The translations under genes were made by a program, and so were the position numbers. DNA of 64,000 nt from an uncultured Actinomycetes bacterium (GTDB taxonomy: Bacteria; Actinomycetota; UBA4738; HRBIN12): contig OY969934.1 in assembly GCA_963704725.1 (NCBI GenBank), forward strand, positions 96,001 to 160,000, read 5' to 3'. The number at the start of each line of letters is the position of its first letter. The stretch's first letter is position 1. The notes below the pieces were generated by a model that saw nothing but the letters and a program-made list of their open reading frames with translations, was not told where the DNA came from and searched no databases. Of this stretch, positions 55,962 to 62,745 are shown one piece after another.

Positions 55962-57070
55962 CGAGAGTCCGGTCGGTCGAGCTGCGGTTGGTCGGCCTCC
56001 CGCTCGTCCGTCCCTTCCGGACGAGCTTCGGCGAGATGACGCGCAAGGAGTGCGTCCTCGCGCGCGTGGAGACCGACGCGGCGGTCGGCTGGGGCGAGTG
56101 CGTCGCCGGGGTCGAGCCGGACTTCTCCGGCGAATGGAACGAGGGAGCCTGGCTCGTGCTGCGCGACTTCCTGATCCCCGCCCTGTTCGGCGCGGGGGAC
56201 GTTTCGCCGCACGATCTGGGGCCGGCGTTCGCGTTCGTGCGAGGTCACCCGATGGCCAAGGCGACCCTCGTCGACGCCTTCCTCGACGCGGCGTTGCGGG
56301 CCGAGGGCCGTTCCCTCGCGACGTTCCTCGGCGCCGAACGGGAGCGCGTGACGTGCGGCGTGTCGGTGGGCATCGCGCCGACGACGGAGCGGCTGCTCGA
56401 GCAGGTGGGTGGCTACCTCGCCGAGGGCTATCGCCGGATCAAGCTGAAGATCGAGCCCGGCACCGACGTCGAGCGCGTCCGCGCCGTCCGCGAGGCCCAC
56501 CCCGGCATCGTGCTCTCGGTCGACGCGAACGCCGCGTACACGCTGGAGGACGTGAAGGTCTTCCGGGACCTCGACGAGCTCGACCTGCTCATGGTGGAGC
56601 AGCCGCTCCACCATGAGGATCTGGTGCAGCACGCGAAGTTGCAGTCCGAGATCGAGACCGCGGTGTGCCTCGATGAGTCGATCCGCTCGCCGGCCGACGC
56701 CGCCGCCGCGATCGAGCTGGGCGCCTGCCGGATCGTCAACGTGAAGCAGGGGAGGGTGGGCGGCGTGCTCGAGGCCAGGCGTGTGCACGATGTGTGTGCG
56801 TCGCAGGGGGTGCCGGTGTGGTGCGGGGGCATGCTGGAGACCGGGATCGGTCGCGCCACGAACGTGGCGCTCTCGGCCATGCCGGGCTTCACGCTGCCCG
56901 GGGACACCAGCGCGAGCGCGCGGTACTTCCCCGAGGACCTCACGACGCCGTTCGAGCTCTCGCCGGACGGGACGATGGCGGTGCCCGGCGGTCCGGGCAT
57001 CGGGGTGGATCCGATCCCGGAGCGTCTCGAGGCCTGCACCCTGCGGCTCGAGCGGTTGGAGAAAGAGTGA
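55958..57070 (+). CDS. menC: o-succinylbenzoate synthase / N-succinylamino acid racemase (enolase superfamily)
   Basis: PFRTSFG, RIKLKIEP, VDANAAY, EQP, LDESI, WCGGMLETGIGR, GDTSAS. Confidence 0.88.
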   Translation: MTRVRSVELRLVGLPLVRPFRTSFGEMTRKECVLARVETDAAVGWGECVAGVEPDFSGEWNEGAWLVLRDFLIPALFGAGDVSPHDLGPAFAFVRGHPMAKATLVDAFLDAALRAEGRSLATFLGAERERVTCGVSVGIAPTTERLLEQVGGYLAEGYRRIKLKIEPGTDVERVRAVREAHPGIVLSVDANAAYTLEDVKVFRDLDELDLLMVEQPLHHEDLVQHAKLQSEIETAVCLDESIRSPADAAAAIELGACRIVNVKQGRVGGVLEARRVHDVCASQGVPVWCGGMLETGIGRATNVALSAMPGFTLPGDTSASARYFPEDLTTPFELSPDGTMAVPGGPGIGVDPIPERLEACTLRLERLEKE

Positions 57071-57126
57071 CAAAAGCGCGGGGTCCGGCTTGACCGCGGC
57101 CGGCGCGAGCCCGTACTGTGCGCGAT

Positions 57127-57164
57127 GAGAGACCGCTGCGACCCTCGGGTTGCGGCGGTTTCTC
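57127..57164 (+). terminator. 17-bp hairpin (terminator or part of a structured leader)
   Basis: GAGAGACCGCTGCGACC-ctcg-GGTTGCGGCGGTTTCTC with 3 G-U pairs, favouring the plus strand. Confidence 0.55.
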
Positions 57165-57287
57165 GCATCTGGGGTGCAATCCAACGGTTCCCGTCTCCGC
57201 GGCACATCCGGCGCCGAATGACCGCGTCGGCGTGCCCGGCCGTCCTAGACTGCGCAAGGCACGCGCGTGAACGATGAGGGGCGGTCC

Positions 57288-57983
57288 ATGAGGAAACGGG
57301 TCATCCGGGCGGGCGAGATCGAGATCGAGGACTCGGAGGGCAGGGTCCGCGCCCGCTTCGGGGTGACGAACGAGGACCTCCCGTTCCTGTCGTTCTACGG
57401 AGCGGACGAGAAGCTCCGGGCCCGGTACGGCGTCCAGCCGGACGGCTCGGCCGGGCTCGCCATCGCCGACGAGGAGGGAAAGGTCCGAGCCACCTTCGGG
57501 CTCTTCTCGGACGGCTCGGCCAGCATGGCGATGGTGGACCGCAACGGGAAGGTGCGTGCCAAGTTCGGCCTGGGCTCCGAGGGCTCGCCGACGCTGGCGC
57601 TGCGGAACAAGGACGGTGAGCTCGGCTTCGTGTACTCGCTTGCCCAGCAAGGGTCTCCGACGATCTCGCTGCAGGACGAGGACGGGAAGGTGCGCGCCCG
57701 GCTCGGCCTGGCGGCGGAGGGATCTCCGATCCTGCGGCTCCTGAACAAGGACGGCGAGCTCCGCGCCATCATGGGGCTCACCGGCGACGGCGCACCGGTC
57801 CTGCAGTTCCTCGGCAAGGACGGGGACCCCACGTGGACCGCCCCGAGCTCGTTCGCGGGCCCGGCCTCCGACGAGGGACCCGCCGCCAAGACCGGACGAT
57901 CGTCGAGGAAGGATCCCGTCACCGAGGATGCCCCCGCCGCGTCACCAGCCCCGGCCGAGCCGGAGGCCTCGGAGGGGAGCTGA
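57288..57983 (+). CDS. Hypothetical tandem-repeat protein (about 7.5 x 23-aa repeats)
   Basis: Consensus LxLxDxDGKxRAxFGLxxDGSPx; acidic/Pro tail. Confidence 0.8.
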   Translation: MRKRVIRAGEIEIEDSEGRVRARFGVTNEDLPFLSFYGADEKLRARYGVQPDGSAGLAIADEEGKVRATFGLFSDGSASMAMVDRNGKVRAKFGLGSEGSPTLALRNKDGELGFVYSLAQQGSPTISLQDEDGKVRARLGLAAEGSPILRLLNKDGELRAIMGLTGDGAPVLQFLGKDGDPTWTAPSSFAGPASDEGPAAKTGRSSRKDPVTEDAPAASPAPAEPEASEGS

Positions 57984-57989
57984 AGCCGC

Positions 57990-58499
57990 CTGACGGGGTG
58001 GTGGGTCGCGGCCTTCGTCGTGCAGTGGATCCTGCTCGCGGTGCTCACCGTCGTCGTGGTGGCGCTGGCGCGGCAGATCGGCGTGCTGCACCTGCGGCTG
58101 GACCCGCTGGGGGCGCTCGAGGTGGACGACGAGGGCCCCCCGATCGGTGAGGCGCCGCCCGAACGCACCTCGCGGACCCGCGACGGCACGCCGGTGCTCG
58201 TTGGGGGACCGGGGCCGATGCGGCTCCTGGCCTTCGTCTCCGAGACGTGCCCCATCTGCGAGCGTGTGCTGCCCTCGCTGCCCGCGGCCGCCGCCGCCGC
58301 CGGGCTGATCCCCCAGGTGGTGTCGGACCCCGAGCTCGAGGCGGTCTACCGGGTGCCGGGCGTGCCGTTCCTGGTCGTGTTGGACGAGCTCGGCGTGGTG
58401 CGCTCGAAGGGGACCGTCAACTCGCTCGAGCAGATCGAGGGCCTCGTCGACACAGCGCGGCGGCGCATCGACGACGACGCGCGGGTTCGGACCGGCTGA
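57990..58499 (+). CDS. MauD-like membrane-anchored thioredoxin-fold protein (probable CTG start; first canonical start GTG 58020)
   Basis: TM helix, LARQIGVLHxRL.P.GAL, GPPIGE, CPIC, GVPF (cis-Pro), KGTVNS - the MauD motif pattern. Confidence 0.8.
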   Translation: MTGWWVAAFVVQWILLAVLTVVVVALARQIGVLHLRLDPLGALEVDDEGPPIGEAPPERTSRTRDGTPVLVGGPGPMRLLAFVSETCPICERVLPSLPAAAAAAGLIPQVVSDPELEAVYRVPGVPFLVVLDELGVVRSKGTVNSLEQIEGLVDTARRRIDDDARVRTG

Positions 58500-59023
58500 T
58501 GGGAGCGGTGGCCCGTGCGGAGACCGAGCTCGCCCGCCGGACGAGCCGGCGATCGTTCCTGGGGAAGGTGGGACGCGCCGTCGTCGCGCTCGCCGGCGGG
58601 CCCATGGTCGCGGTAGCGCTGGCGCCGGAGCGGGCCGAGGCCAACCACATCTGCGGGCACACGTACACGACGGGCTCCTGTCCCCACCCGTACGCGCCGC
58701 TCTCGCGGACCGACGCCTACGGCTTCCCGATCCATCCGCACTTCGGCTACCCGGTCGACGACAACGGCTTCATCTACCTCTCCTCGCGACAGCCGCGCCG
58801 CAAGGTGTGCCAGACCGTGGTGCCCGAGCACTACCCGTTCGTCCATCACCCCCGATACGGCGGTGGATGGAGCCGATGCTGCAACGGCCGGGTCCGTCAC
58901 ATCCAGGACTGCTGCTCGTCATCGCGGACGCGGATCAACGGCGACGGCTCGGTCCGGGGGTACTGCGCCCGGAGCCTCCGCGTGTTCTGCATCACGTACC
59001 GTGAGCTGGACGTCCGGTGCTGA
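58499..59023 (+). CDS. Tat-exported Cys-rich protein, distantly MauA (MADH light chain)-like
   Basis: SRRSFLG Tat motif, AEA cleavage site, 10 Cys, W..CC...DCC...YC...C pattern; TGATG coupling to the mauD-like gene. Confidence 0.75.
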   Translation: MGAVARAETELARRTSRRSFLGKVGRAVVALAGGPMVAVALAPERAEANHICGHTYTTGSCPHPYAPLSRTDAYGFPIHPHFGYPVDDNGFIYLSSRQPRRKVCQTVVPEHYPFVHHPRYGGGWSRCCNGRVRHIQDCCSSSRTRINGDGSVRGYCARSLRVFCITYRELDVRC

Positions 59024-60234
59024 GCGAGCCGCTCGTCGCGGCGGTGGTCGCCGCGTCGGTCGTCGCCGGGATCACGGCGCTGTTCGGCCCCTGAGGGCTC
59101 TCGATGGTGGAGACCATCACCCCCGTGGTGCACGGGGGCCGGCGGAGCAGGTGGGCGACGTTCCTCGCCCTGCACGTCGCCGGCGCCACGCTGGCGGCCG
59201 TGGCGTTCGGCGCCCTGCTCGGCGAGGCCGGCGCGCTGCTCGGCGCGCCGTGGGGGAGTGCGGGCGTCGCGCTCGTCGCCGGGTCGGCGGTCCTGTACCT
59301 GGCGCGGGAGACGGTCGGCCTGCGGATCCCGGTTCCCCAGCTCCGCCGCCAGGTCCCCGACTGGTGGCGGACGTTCTTCGGGTTCGGGCCGGCGTCCTTC
59401 CTCTACGGGCTCGGGCTCGGGGTGGGGTTCCTCACGTTCCTGTCCGGCGGCACGCTCGTGGTGGTGGTGGTGGCGGCCGTCGCCGGGGGCCGGCCGGCGC
59501 TCGGGGCGATGCTGATGGGGCCCTTCGGGCTGGCGCGGGGGATGACCGCGCTGGTCGCGATGCGCGCCCGGACGCCGGAGGGCGGCTCCGAGCTCGTCGG
59601 GCGGATCGCCCGGTCTGCGGGCCGTCCCGGATGGCGGGTGGTGCGCTCGGCGGCGCTCGCGGCCGTCGCCGTCGCCGGGCTCGCGGCCGGAGGTCGGCTC
59701 GAGGGCCGGCAGCTGGGAGCCGTTGCGGCGGCGGTCGTCGCCGTGGCGTTCGCCGCGGCCGGCGTGGCCAAGCTGGCGGATCTTCGCTCGTGGCGTCGGG
59801 GCCTCGGCGCGTACGTGCTCCCCCGCCCCGTGGAGCGCGCCGCCTCGGTCGTGGTCCCGGGCGCCGAGCTCGTGGTGGCGACACTGCCGTTCCTCGGACT
59901 GCGCTCGACGGCGGGGCTCGTCGCCCTCGTGGCCCTGGCGGCCTTTTCCGCGGCGACGGTTCGCGCCCGGATCCGGGGCGGCAGCCGGCTTGCGTGCGGC
60001 TGCTTCGGATCGGCGACGCCGCGCGACTACCGGCTCCTGCTCCTTCGCAACGCGCTCCTGGCCGTGGCGGCGATCTCGGCCTGGCGAGGCGGGGGGGATG
60101 CGCCGGTCGCCGCGCTCCGGATGCCGGCGGGATCGGAGCTCCTGCCGGCTGCCATCGTCGCGACCGGGCTGGGGCTCGCCGTGTGGGCCGGGGCGCAGAC
60201 CGCGATCGCCGTTCGGCGCGGGGCCCGGCAATGA
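59017..60234 (+). CDS. MauF-like/MauE fusion membrane protein with in-frame TGA at codon 26 (candidate selenoprotein)
   Basis: GTG 59017 overlaps the upstream stop; TM helix, then F-G-P-[TGA]-G-L-S-M; C-terminal MauE features AGVAKL, PGAEL, CGCFG, LLRN. Confidence 0.7.
59095..59138 (+). promoter_or_regulatory. Candidate bacterial SECIS element
   Basis: Hairpins GATGGT-ggag-ACCATC (59103-59118) and CCCCCGTG-gtg-CACGGGGG (59120-59138) just 3' of the TGA; both loops begin with G. Confidence 0.5.
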
Positions 60235-60827
60235 AGCGGATCGCGCTCGCGGTCGCCGGGATGGCCGCCGTAGCCGTGGCGGCCCTCGCGCTTCCGGCCG
60301 GGGCGACACACACGAACCAGACGGACCCGAACGATACGCCCGGCCGCCTCGACGTTCGCGGGGTCGTGCTGGCTCACGACGAGACGCCGCGGTGGCGCAT
60401 CTCCACGTTCGCCTCGTGGACGACGCGGCAGCTCTGGGACGCGGGCGGGCTCGTCGTCGAGCTCGACACGACGGGCGAGGCCGGGATCGACCACCTCATT
60501 GTCGTCCGATCGGACGGCCGGAAGCTCGTCGCCACCCTCTTCCGGGTTCGGGCCGACGGCTCCGAGCGCCGGGTCGCCAACCTGCACGCCGCCAAGGACG
60601 GCCGGGCGGGGGTCGCGGTCTCGGTCGCGCTGCACCGGCTGACGATCGGCTCCGAGCGAACCTCGTACTTCTGGTCGGTGCTCTCGATGTTCACGGGCGC
60701 GGCGTGTCCCCAGACCTGCCTCGACCACGTGCCCGACGAGGGCATGATCGAGCAGCCGCTGCCCGGGATCACGCCGTCGCCCACACCCACGACGACACCG
60801 AGCCCGACGCCCGGTCTCGGCGGTTGA
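60231..60827 (+). CDS. Secreted hypothetical protein with CxxxC motif and Pro/Thr tail
   Basis: ATGA overlap; signal peptide MKRIALAVAGMAAVAVAALALPAGA; CPQTC; TPSPTPTTTPSPTP. Confidence 0.75.
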   Translation: MKRIALAVAGMAAVAVAALALPAGATHTNQTDPNDTPGRLDVRGVVLAHDETPRWRISTFASWTTRQLWDAGGLVVELDTTGEAGIDHLIVVRSDGRKLVATLFRVRADGSERRVANLHAAKDGRAGVAVSVALHRLTIGSERTSYFWSVLSMFTGAACPQTCLDHVPDEGMIEQPLPGITPSPTPTTTPSPTPGLGG

Positions 60828-60879
60828 GGGGTCGGTCGCCCGCTTCCCAACCCTCCGGGGGCCGTGGGAGTATCCGTCC

Positions 60880-62745
60880 ATGTCCGCCGACGCCCTGATC
60901 ACCAACGCCAACGGGCGTCGCCCCGGGCTCGGCCGGGGGCGGGAGCCGGCGGCCGCGCTCACCGCGGTGGTCGAGGACCTCGCGGGCGAGCTGTCGCTCC
61001 GCCCGCTCCTCGAGCGGATCCTCCTGCACTCGACCGAGCTGCTCGGGTGCGACGCCGGATCGATCTGCCTCGTCGACGAGTCCGCCGGTGTCTACCGCAA
61101 GGAGGCGGACATCGGGGTGGCCTGCCAATCGGGACGCGTCTTCCCCCTGACGGAGGGCGTGACCGGCGCGGTCGTGAAGCGTCGGGGCCCGGTCATCTTC
61201 GCCGACTACGCCGAGGTGCCGGGCGGCCACGTCCGGCCGGAGGACCGCGCGTCGCTGCGCGGCGTGATCGGGGTCCCGATCTGGTGGCGTGGCGAGATCG
61301 TGGGGTCCTGCGTGGTGTTCTCCCGAGACCCCGGGCGCACGTTCTCCCTGCAGGACGCCGAGCTGCTCGGGCTGTTCGCGAAGCACGCCGCCATCGCCGT
61401 GACGAACGCGCGCCTGCACGAGGCCTCGGAGGCCAACGCGAGGGCGGAGGCGACCGCGGCCGAGAGGGAGCGCATCGCGCGGGAGGTGCACGACACCGTG
61501 GCGCAGGGGCTGGTTTCGGTCCTGCTCCAGCTCCGGGCCGCCGACGGCGCGGTCGCCGAGGGGCGGTCCGAGGACGCCGTGGCCGCGCTCCGCGAGGCGC
61601 GCGCGACCGCAGAGGCCGCCTTCGAGGAGACCCGCCGCAGCGTGCTCGGCCTGGCGCCGTCGCCGCTCGAGGGCCGCTCGCTGGAGGAGGCGCTGGAGCT
61701 CGAGGTCGACTGGGCGAACCGGATCGGCGTGGCGGACCTGCGGCTGGTGACGGCGGGACCGCAAGTACCGTTGCCGGCTGAGCTGGCGCTCACGCTCTTC
61801 CGCATCGCGCAGGAGGCGCTCACGAACGCGCTCCGCCACGCGCGGGCACGATCGGTGCGGTTCGGGCTCGTGTACGGGCCGGCCGACGTCACGCTGCTCG
61901 TCCAGGACGACGGGGCGGGGTTCGACCAAGCGCAGATCGATCAGGCCGGCGAGCTCGGGCACGGGGGCCTCCGGGGGATGGCCGAGCGGGCGCACCTTCT
62001 CGGAGGCACGCTCGAGCTCGACTCGACCCCAGGATGGGGAACGCGCGTCCGCGCCTCGATCCCCCTCCCGCTGGCTTCGCCCGCCGATGCCGAGCCGCTG
62101 GTCGGTCCCGTCCGGGTGCTCGTGGTCGACGACCACGCGATCGCCCGGGCGGGGATCGTCCGGCTCCTGTCCTCGGCGGGCGCGGCGGGGAGCGACCCCG
62201 CGCTTCGGATCGTCGGCGAGGCCTCCTCGGGCGAGGAGGCGGTGGCGGCCTGGCGCCAGCTTCGGCCGGACGTGGTCCTCATGGACCTCCGGATGCCGGG
62301 CGGTGACGGGATCGACGCGATCGCGCGGATCCGTCGCGAGGACCCGCAGGCTCGCATCGTGGCGCTCACGGCGTTCACGAACGACGATCTGGTCGCCGGC
62401 GCGATCCGAGCCGGCGCGCGCGGCTACGTCGGCAAGAGCGCAACGGTCGCGGAGCTCGTCGGCGCAGTGCTGAGCGCCTCGCGCGGCGACACAGTGCTGT
62501 CGGGTGCGGCGGCGGACCGTCTCCGCTCGCACCTGAATGGGTCGGGCGGCTACCTGGCCCTCACCGACCGCGAGCGCGAGGTGGTTCGCTACCTCGAACG
62601 CGGAACGCCAGATCGGGAGATCGCCGCGGCGCTGCATATCTCGATCAAAACGGTCGAGAAGCACGTCGGCTCCATCCTGCGCAAGACCGGCAGCCAGAAC
62701 CGCACGCAGGTTGCCGCGTTGGCGCGTGAGTACACTCGCGCCTAG
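60880..62745 (+). CDS. Hybrid GAF-histidine kinase-receiver-LuxR HTH transcription factor
   Basis: GAF domain, ERERIAREVHD (HisKA_3), QEALTNALRH/DDGAGF, VLVVDDH/DVVLMD, LTDREREV...KTVEKHV. Confidence 0.9.
   Translation: MSADALITNANGRRPGLGRGREPAAALTAVVEDLAGELSLRPLLERILLHSTELLGCDAGSICLVDESAGVYRKEADIGVACQSGRVFPLTEGVTGAVVKRRGPVIFADYAEVPGGHVRPEDRASLRGVIGVPIWWRGEIVGSCVVFSRDPGRTFSLQDAELLGLFAKHAAIAVTNARLHEASEANARAEATAAERERIAREVHDTVAQGLVSVLLQLRAADGAVAEGRSEDAVAALREARATAEAAFEETRRSVLGLAPSPLEGRSLEEALELEVDWANRIGVADLRLVTAGPQVPLPAELALTLFRIAQEALTNALRHARARSVRFGLVYGPADVTLLVQDDGAGFDQAQIDQAGELGHGGLRGMAERAHLLGGTLELDSTPGWGTRVRASIPLPLASPADAEPLVGPVRVLVVDDHAIARAGIVRLLSSAGAAGSDPALRIVGEASSGEEAVAAWRQLRPDVVLMDLRMPGGDGIDAIARIRREDPQARIVALTAFTNDDLVAGAIRAGARGYVGKSATVAELVGAVLSASRGDTVLSGAAADRLRSHLNGSGGYLALTDREREVVRYLERGTPDREIAAALHISIKTVEKHVGSILRKTGSQNRTQVAALAREYTRA

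Follow-up and report, generated by a model that had tools for sequence, protein, structure and literature searches.

In a 64,000-nucleotide stretch of DNA from an uncultured Actinomycetes bacterium (contig OY969934.1 of assembly GCA_963704725.1, forward-strand positions 96,001 to 160,000; hereafter the window), a small gene at 58499..59023 on the + strand encodes a ten-cysteine precursor with a twin-arginine translocation (Tat) leader. Our preferred reading, held with moderate confidence, is that its product is a stand-alone client of a Mau-type oxidative-folding cassette and a remote, compact relative of MauA and AauA, the small subunits of methylamine dehydrogenase (MADH) and aromatic amine dehydrogenase (AADH), without being an amine dehydrogenase. 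Four independent lines favour a remote likeness to MauA: the leader of the small protein, its neighbouring genes, its predicted fold and a language-model search. They suggest that the link of the mature domain to MauA is real but very remote.

The small gene has 174 codons in the list of open reading frames (ORFs). Its likely start is the ATG at 58499, which overlaps the TGA stop of a MauD-like gene in an ATGA junction, and the 120 closest homologues start at the same position. By a scripted count, the 174 residues include a single tryptophan (W124), nine histidines (50, 54, 63, 79, 81, 111, 116, 117 and 134) and ten cysteines (52, 61, 104, 127, 128, 138, 139, 156, 164 and 174). Four motifs follow one another along the protein: GGW-SRCC with W124, IQDCC with D137, GYC with Y155 and VFCIT with C164. 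The count thus agrees with the initial annotation, made from the sequence alone, both on the order of these motifs and on the nine histidines.

Leader and export of the small protein

Residues 1-48 (58499..58642, + strand) form a twin-arginine leader of the MauA type, with the arginine pair at 17-18 and A-E-A at 46-48. Cleavage after A-E-A, a site placed by eye, would leave NHICGH as the mature N-terminus. The model for twin-arginine signals, TIGR01409, matches residues 15-41 with 18.9 bits (cut-off 16.7) and the genome encodes TatC (210.9 bits), in line with the earlier proposal of a Tat substrate. Among 18,950 NCBIfam models, TIGR02659 (MauA) is the sole full-family model that touches the small protein, at residues 9-45 only; its score of 15.2 bits, against a cut-off of 196.85, comes from the leader part alone.

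The leaders of the small-protein family were compared with those of MauA by hhalign, using an alignment of 48 sequences that covers a short and a long subfamily (A1) and a MauA alignment of 41 sequences (A3) built from the Paracoccus denitrificans mau cluster and 220 MauA relatives. They aligned with a probability of 97.4% and an E value of 1.4e-11. When alignment columns were shuffled as a control, 99 of 100 shuffles scored at most 19.4, while the real alignment scored 66.3. The remaining shuffle reached 128.3 over 14 columns and so exceeded the real score; this outlier is unexplained, and we treated it as an artefact of gap-rich columns. Column shuffling cannot separate generic Tat likeness from likeness specific to MauA, which a ranking with a hidden Markov model (HMM) of the MauA leader does. 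With such a leader-only HMM the small ORF ranked first of the 27,916 open frames in the genome that are 60 amino acids (aa) or longer, at 26.1 bits, with the runner-up at 13.8. Because of this first rank, generic Tat similarity is ruled out and the leader is, by its sequence, of the MauA type.

Gene neighbourhood

Directly upstream of the small gene, at 58020..58499 on the + strand, lies a gene for a MauD-like, membrane-anchored thioredoxin-fold protein of 159 aa (TIGR02661; anchor assigned by eye), whose CPIC motif occupies residues 77-80 (58248-58259, + strand). The MauD model TIGR02661 matches it with an E value of 7.9e-25 and 87.4 bits, under the equivalog cut-off of 188.6. A tblastn search of 72,556 plasmids with this protein matched 29 records; 16 of the 25 listed are annotated mauD, at 32-39% identity.

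Downstream, and overlapping the small gene's stop, a MauF-MauE fusion membrane protein of 405 codons is encoded at 59017..60234 (+ strand). Its true start, GTG 59017, lies 87 nucleotides (nt) ahead of that of the ORF caller, and standard calling cuts the gene at a UGA. Within the MauF half, residues 79-174 align with residues 134-229 of P. denitrificans MauF at 33% identity over 96 ungapped residues (BLASTP E 9e-6); none of the library models in Pfam and NCBIfam matches either this half or P. denitrificans MauF. The MauE half is recognised by PF07291 on residues 233-355 (E 1.3e-20, 74.5 bits against a cut-off of 27). Its CXC motif, CGCFG, starts at residue 327 (59995-60009, + strand) and agrees with the MauE active-site logo in the accessible part of a preprint (10.64898/2026.03.05.709764).

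This arrangement is widely kept. Among 80 close loci, the MauD-like gene stands upstream of the small gene in all 80 and a MauE-like gene downstream in 73. In ten further loci the MauD-like gene is adjacent in 10/10 and a MauF-like gene in 8/10; in tblastn, P. denitrificans MauF matches the gene beside the client in six of the ten and the window's MauF domain does so in eight. A MauE-MauD fusion lies upstream of the client in all four distant loci examined. The gene order is mauD, client, mauF-mauE fusion in the short subfamily, that of the window protein, and mauE-mauD fusion, client, mauF in the long subfamily. The order mauE-mauD-client of the distant loci is also that of mauE-mauD-mauA in P. 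denitrificans. Genes outside the module vary from locus to locus, with VanW, DsbA and SSB genes at one and an ABC transporter, GH31 and PrpD at another. Since these surroundings differ, the conserved unit consists of MauE, MauD, the client and MauF.

Several variants of the module were observed. At one long-subfamily locus (L131, 8667-9898, - strand), from a distant genome, the client gene is duplicated in tandem, and both copies lie between the MauE-MauD fusion gene and mauF. The MauE-MauD fusions of this subfamily are about 260-300 aa long (L126 9851-10720, L128 8178-9062, L129 9582-10358, L131 9873-10769), and at L128 and L129 the MauF-like protein measures about 500 aa, including a C-terminal half without assignment. 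The genome that contains the window has two further MauE genes (G000:C1:2594031-2594411 and 3291746-3292114, or L001 and L002), neither with an adjoining client or mauF; at L002 a thioredoxin-like gene follows. Given these two client-free MauE genes, a general MauE pathway seems to coexist with the dedicated one.

Predicted fold and sequence of the mature domain

The mature ten-cysteine domain (58643..59023, + strand; 126 aa and the stop codon) contains invariant columns and has a confident AlphaFold2 (AF2) model. When the full-length model was searched with VIA-align only the signal helix was matched, and the mature part was therefore modelled alone, which gave a predicted local distance difference test (pLDDT) score of 92.1 and a predicted template modelling (pTM) score of 0.85. 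Against 48,161 PDB representatives, VIA-align placed 30 chains at Z>=2. The first was the AADH small subunit 2agl_D (Z 3.6, root-mean-square deviation (rmsd) 2.9 Å over 73 residues, 15% identity) and the second the MADH light chain 3c75_M (Z 3.4, rmsd 3.3 Å over 74 residues). Re-scoring of Foldseek's best 920 chains left three at Z>=2, namely 2iur_D (Z 4.0), 2agy_H (Z 3.9) and 1mda_L (Z 3.4), all small subunits that carry tryptophan tryptophylquinone (TTQ). The initial annotation had named a lack of structural similarity to MauA as an outcome that would speak against its proposal; the modelled fold instead suggests a weak likeness to TTQ small subunits, at Z 3.4-4.0. A language-model search with the mature part alone also placed a PF02975 (MauA) cluster first, with a score of 0.76, which is a lead only and below the tool's firmer level. 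Resemblance to the gamma subunit of quinohemoprotein amine dehydrogenase (QHNDH) was considered too and ruled out, as that subunit is not among the 30 structural matches at Z>=2.

At the sequence level, ASWVASC, YRDCCG, IIWCFG and YHCTIS follow one another along P. denitrificans MauA, which makes the parallel that had been drawn by eye real as a pattern, though a statistically weak one. In our own comparison the VFC/YHC cysteine lies 10 residues from the C-terminus in either protein, and in the small protein the hairpin is 6 residues shorter and the loop from D to Y/W 14 residues shorter than in MauA. This spacing would fit a remote kinship. We tried hhalign on the mature domains in local and global mode and with alternative alignments; it paired only QDCCSSS with RDCCGYN (7 columns, E 0.072, probability 0.8%), a fragment that puts D137 on Asp76 of MauA. 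A remotely shared C-terminal core would comprise the Trp-bearing beta-hairpin, D-C-C, Y/W-C and the last strand, with the N-terminal half being new. The proposed equivalences of W124 with Trp57 and of Y155 with Trp108 would follow from motif order.

Family and conservation

The small protein belongs to a large nameless family, chiefly in uncultured Actinomycetota. A word-indexed search with its sequence returned 611 proteins at E<=0.001; when the query was instead a distant member with a 20-residue insert, 652 were returned. None of the matches listed from either search carries a Pfam domain, and their only names are 'hypothetical protein' and 'twin-arginine translocation signal domain-containing protein'. 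A scan of species genomes matched at least 594 stretches, at least 588 of them encoding a relative, and the 80 loci retained are all from uncultured Actinomycetota. Across an even sample of the phylum the family was found in 48 of 401 genomes, a tally that includes eight unpublished ones (G120, G174, G391, G001, G226, G048, G239 and G018), and the carriers cluster in a few taxonomic families (f6, 24/26; f1, 10/22; f19, 3/7). Miltoncostaea marina (P0310) is a named member, and the family thus reaches Thermoleophilia. A literature search, with subscription journals outside its coverage, found no published description of the client family or of a selenoprotein MauF.

Three residues of the mature domain never vary. 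W124 (58868-58870), D137 (58907-58909) and Y155 (58961-58963), all on the + strand, are invariant together with all ten cysteines in the 121 unfiltered sequences of the short subfamily, and equivalents of these three residues and of H54 (58658-58660, + strand) are present in 120/120 unfiltered hits of the long subfamily. Conservation of the Trp, Asp and Tyr in homologues, which had been suggested as a check, is therefore complete in these sets. Further invariants in A1 are G53, H54, T57, T58, P64, R70, R100, R126, R133, R145, N147, D149 and Y167. The A1 representatives were pre-filtered for W.RCC and DCC, whereas the sets of 121 and 120 sequences were not; because of this motif-filtered source, counts from A1 and from a set of 245 family members are circular for these two motifs. 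Within the 245, ten mature-domain cysteines are found in 242 and between two and five mature-domain tryptophans in 129. The earlier statement that there is only one Trp thus holds for the window protein and the short subfamily but not for the family as a whole.

The rest of the MADH system is missing. In the genome, a single contig that is 95% complete, no match was found to MauB (PF06433), MauG (PF03150) or canonical MauA (PF02975). MauB was found in none of 47 other carrier genomes by a search that does match the P. denitrificans plasmid, our positive control; MauG is present in two of the 47, separated from the client gene by hundreds of kilobases in each. Within about 9 kilobases (kb) in the ten further loci, some of them distant, the P. 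denitrificans MauB, MauG, MauJ and amicyanin had no match. According to the accessible part of a 2025 review (PMC11951088), TTQ is made by MauG from Trp57 and Trp108. The proposed Trp108 position of the small protein is Tyr in 121/121 and 120/120 sequences, and because it always is, canonical TTQ cannot form, as had been anticipated from the single Trp. With neither a heavy chain nor MauG nor a second Trp, the small protein is not an amine dehydrogenase subunit and contains no TTQ.

Alternative explanations

Several points weigh against our preferred reading. The mature-domain alignment by hhalign is confined to the 7-column fragment above. PF02975 is not among the Pfam matches of the small protein, a profile of its family found no MADH chain among PDB sequences at E<=10, nor did a single-sequence search of the same sequences match one, and the small ORF is absent from the 234 rows that a mature-MauA HMM returned from the genome's ORFs at E<=1000. 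Neither the full nor the mature model had a Foldseek match in the PDB at E<=0.001, and Z scores of 3.4-4.0, with 72-74 of the 126 residues aligned, count as weak on the tool's own scale. The roles of MauD, MauE and MauF at these loci would be those suggested by homology, and MauF has no known function. Why a disulfide-rich client should use the Tat system, a carrier of folded proteins, is unexplained, and the same puzzle applies to MauA. Finally, W124, D137 and Y155 never vary, which points beyond a purely structural role and is left unexplained if disulfides are the only modification. The initial proposal of a MauA-like protein therefore stands as far as the leader, the gene context and a weak but specific predicted fold go, and falls short where the sequence profiles of the mature domains remain unlinked.

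The missing sequence-level connection between the mature domains, together with the modest Z scores, leaves room for a domain that is unrelated to MauA and has only the leader and the helpers in common with it. MauDEF would then serve many unrelated Cys-rich clients, and the fold and the Trp, Asp and Tyr would be a coincidence or the product of convergence; that MauE is far commoner than MauA, as reported in the accessible part of the preprint (10.64898/2026.03.05.709764), suits such a picture. We regard it as unlikely. The top structural matches are exclusively TTQ small subunits (ranks 1 and 2 of 48,161, and the only three of 920 at Z>=2), the language-model search places PF02975 first although the leader was left out, and, by our own comparison, in both proteins DCC follows a Trp-bearing beta-hairpin and the last cysteine motif lies equally far from the C-terminus. 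Histidines suggest another function, that of a metal-binding disulfide scaffold in which H50, H54, H63, H79 and H134 would coordinate Cu, Zn or Ni upon a rigid framework of cystines. Among the nine histidines of the window protein, these five are near-invariant in the short subfamily (H50, H54 and H79 in 121/121, H63 in 120/121, H134 in 114/121), but H54 alone is invariant over both subfamilies (A1 and the 245 filtered members). In the 245, H50 is replaced by G in 76, H63 by S, G or A in 107, H79 by R in 114 and H134 by K or R in 129. As only H54 is common to both subfamilies, a metal site is no family-wide function, and neither a transporter nor a chaperone for metals is conserved nearby. Such a site is possible, from residue conservation, for the short subfamily alone; as an account of the small protein at large the scaffold is quite unlikely. 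A histidine-brace or N-terminal copper site was ruled out, as residue 49 varies (H in 80, Y in 23, N in 8 and F in 8 of 121 sequences).

The invariant W124, D137 and Y155 also bear on the suggestion of a new redox cofactor built on W124, which could be a cross-linked quinone of the Trp-Tyr (W124-Y155) or Cys-Trp type, or a tryptophylquinone with no cross-link. Its formation would not involve MauG and would depend either on self-processing or on an enzyme that has escaped recognition, and the protein would count as a small quinoprotein. Tat export is a typical route for proteins with cofactors, the local profile alignment sets D137 on Asp76, the predicted fold resembles TTQ subunits only, and the structure-based identity of 15-17% over 72-73 residues is what would be expected if the Cys, Trp and Asp core aligns. 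We nonetheless judge this cofactor distinctly improbable. MauG is lacking from the genome and, in the two of 47 carriers that have it, lies far from the client gene. No oxidase, flavoprotein or radical S-adenosylmethionine (radical-SAM) gene is conserved beside the module in the four distant loci; with no modifying enzyme conserved, the cofactor would need to form by itself or with the Mau helpers. In our own motif alignment the MADH active-site residues Tyr119 and Thr122 are without equivalents, V162 and I165 standing in their places. A Trp-Tyr type is likewise not mentioned in the accessible part of the 2025 review (PMC11951088), which names cysteine tryptophylquinone (CTQ), lysine tyrosylquinone (LTQ), pyrroloquinoline quinone (PQQ), topaquinone (TPQ) and TTQ as the quinone cofactors. 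A new quinone cofactor is thus not supported by the gene context. The fullest version of this idea, in which the protein is a heavy-chain-free descendant of a TTQ light chain with a new W124 cofactor (cross-linked to Tyr155 or a Cys, with Asp137 as the base, free of MauG, and matured with the aid of a selenocysteine-containing MauF), appears very improbable to us. If true, this would add a sixth to the known kinds of quinone or cross-link cofactor, and hundreds of soil Actinomycetota would have it.

An in-frame TGA in the MauF-MauE gene

Codon 26 of the MauF-MauE gene is an in-frame TGA (59092..59094, + strand), located at the Cys of the SPCG motif of MauF. A TGA is conserved at this spot, with coding sequence conserved on both sides, in 70 of 81 sources, and the pattern was not found in the other 11. 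P. denitrificans MauF reads TWSPCGYS here, with Cys at the TGA position, and five long-subfamily loci (L099-L103, recurring as L128, L129 and L131) have TGC or TGT; four of the loci in this comparison come from unpublished genomes. Starting 25 nt after the TGA, RNAalifold predicted a conserved, GC-rich hairpin resembling a selenocysteine insertion sequence (SECIS), CCCCCGT-GGTGC-ACGGGGG (59120..59138, + strand). Over 20 loci, seven of its pairs are kept in 15-20 of the 20 and two pairs show a change on both sides, a signal that is confounded by conservation of the peptide. The genome encodes a tRNA-Sec (75.1 bits, anticodon TCA) as well as selA, selB and selD, all over their cut-offs. The TGA thus probably encodes selenocysteine. 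Replacement of the lone conserved Cys by selenocysteine likely marks the reactive residue of MauF.

Other genes of the putative operon

The MauF-MauE gene is followed, across another ATGA junction, by a gene at 60231..60827 (+ strand) in the ORF list, for a secreted protein whose 198 aa include a signal peptide, the invariant motif D32-x-x-D35-x-x-G38-x-x-D41, the cysteine pair C159-x3-C163 and a tail rich in Pro and Thr. By tblastn it is found in 64 of 80 loci, in 47 of them on the same strand; it has no Pfam family, and its neighbours in the atlas are nameless actinobacterial clusters. It may be a partner of the small protein.

On the other side of the module, the ORF list holds a tandem-repeat protein of 238 aa at 57267..57983 (+ strand), with repeats of about 20 aa of the types D-x-x-G-K-V-R-A-x-x-G-L and G-K-V-R-A-x-F-G-L-x-x-D-G-S. 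No Pfam or NCBIfam library family reaches its cut-off on this protein. A tblastn search of 80 related loci places it upstream, in the same orientation, in 55, and it is conserved in the short subfamily only; its membership of the operon is uncertain. We found neither a sigma-70-like promoter nor an intrinsic terminator in 57000-61200.

Proposed mechanism

If the small protein is a client of a Mau-type cassette, as we favour, four genes would be translationally coupled, those for the MauD-like protein, the small protein, the MauF-MauE fusion and the secreted protein. The small precursor would be exported through its MauA-type leader. The MauE domain, DsbB-like and with a quinone-linked CXC motif, would oxidise the membrane-anchored MauD-like thioredoxin at its CPIC motif, and the MauD-like protein would in turn form the client's five disulfides. 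A second thiol or selenol step, for instance disulfide shuffling, the reduction of wrong pairs or the release of a mixed intermediate, may come from the MauF domain, in which selenocysteine would take the place of the single conserved Cys. Disulfides would be the client's only modification. Once folded, it would act as a redox or ligand-binding module, alone or with a small partner, with H54, W124, R126, R133, D137, R145, N147, D149, Y155 and Y167 clustering in a putative site. Two of these steps have precedents in the accessible part of the preprint (10.64898/2026.03.05.709764), in which two MauE proteins substitute for DsbB in Escherichia coli, with the CXC motif being required, and MauD is argued to be a DsbA-like intermediary for the six disulfides of MauA.

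Significance

We read the small protein as a compact, orphan representative of the TTQ-light-chain lineage, served by a Mau-type folding cassette that includes a probable selenoprotein. Its predicted fold resembles the MADH small subunit weakly but specifically. The small protein may be an ancestor of the TTQ light chain or a stripped-down descendant of it, and its family shows such a light chain without its enzyme. To our knowledge, MauD, MauE and MauF have for some thirty years been known solely as requirements of the MADH small subunit. With hundreds of genomes in which a compact client accompanies these helpers alone, the family offers a much simpler system in which to define the role of each Mau helper, above all that of MauF. 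Its invariant Trp-Asp-Tyr set makes it a direct and cheap test case for a new protein-derived cofactor. Current annotation cuts the MauF-MauE gene at the UGA and leaves the client nameless.

Comparison with known systems

The closest known counterparts are MauA and AauA (PF02975, TIGR02659). Like them, the small protein has a long twin-arginine leader with the pattern A-x-x-T-S-R-R-S-F-L-G-x-x-G, is encoded beside mauD, mauE and mauF, and would form a small, disulfide-dense domain, mostly of beta and coil, in which a hairpin Trp is followed by D-C-C. It differs from them in that its mature domain has no HMM match, in having 10 cysteines rather than the 12 of MauA (six disulfides in the accessible part of 10.64898/2026.03.05.709764) and in the Tyr at the proposed Trp108 position. 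Its hairpin and the next loop are shorter and its N-terminal half is about 40 residues longer, its loci are without MauB, MauG, amicyanin and MauJ, and it occurs in Actinomycetota rather than Pseudomonadota.

With respect to the helpers, the cassette shares with the MauE/MauD pathway described in the accessible part of the preprint (10.64898/2026.03.05.709764) a MauE domain with C-G-C-F-G and a thioredoxin-fold CxxC partner. The MauE-thioredoxin fusions of the distant loci also have counterparts there, making up 8.2% of the InterPro MauE entries. In contrast to that pathway, MauE is fused here to MauF, or to MauD in the distant relatives, and is tied to one conserved client; neither MauF nor selenocysteine is mentioned in that part of the preprint. 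P. denitrificans MauF, in turn, resembles the MauF domain of the window in its 33% identity over 96 residues and in an S/G-P-C/U-G motif that ends the first membrane helix, and differs from it in that the short subfamily has a putative selenocysteine (TGA) for the Cys and a fusion to MauE.

A further comparison is with QhpC, the QHNDH gamma subunit, which we take to be a small, cross-linked CTQ subunit whose Cys-Trp quinone might be imitated by W124 together with C127 or C128. Maturation of QhpC needs a radical-SAM enzyme, a flavoprotein and a protease, and such maturation genes are not conserved at the four distant client loci; nor is QhpC one of the 30 chains that match the predicted fold at Z>=2.

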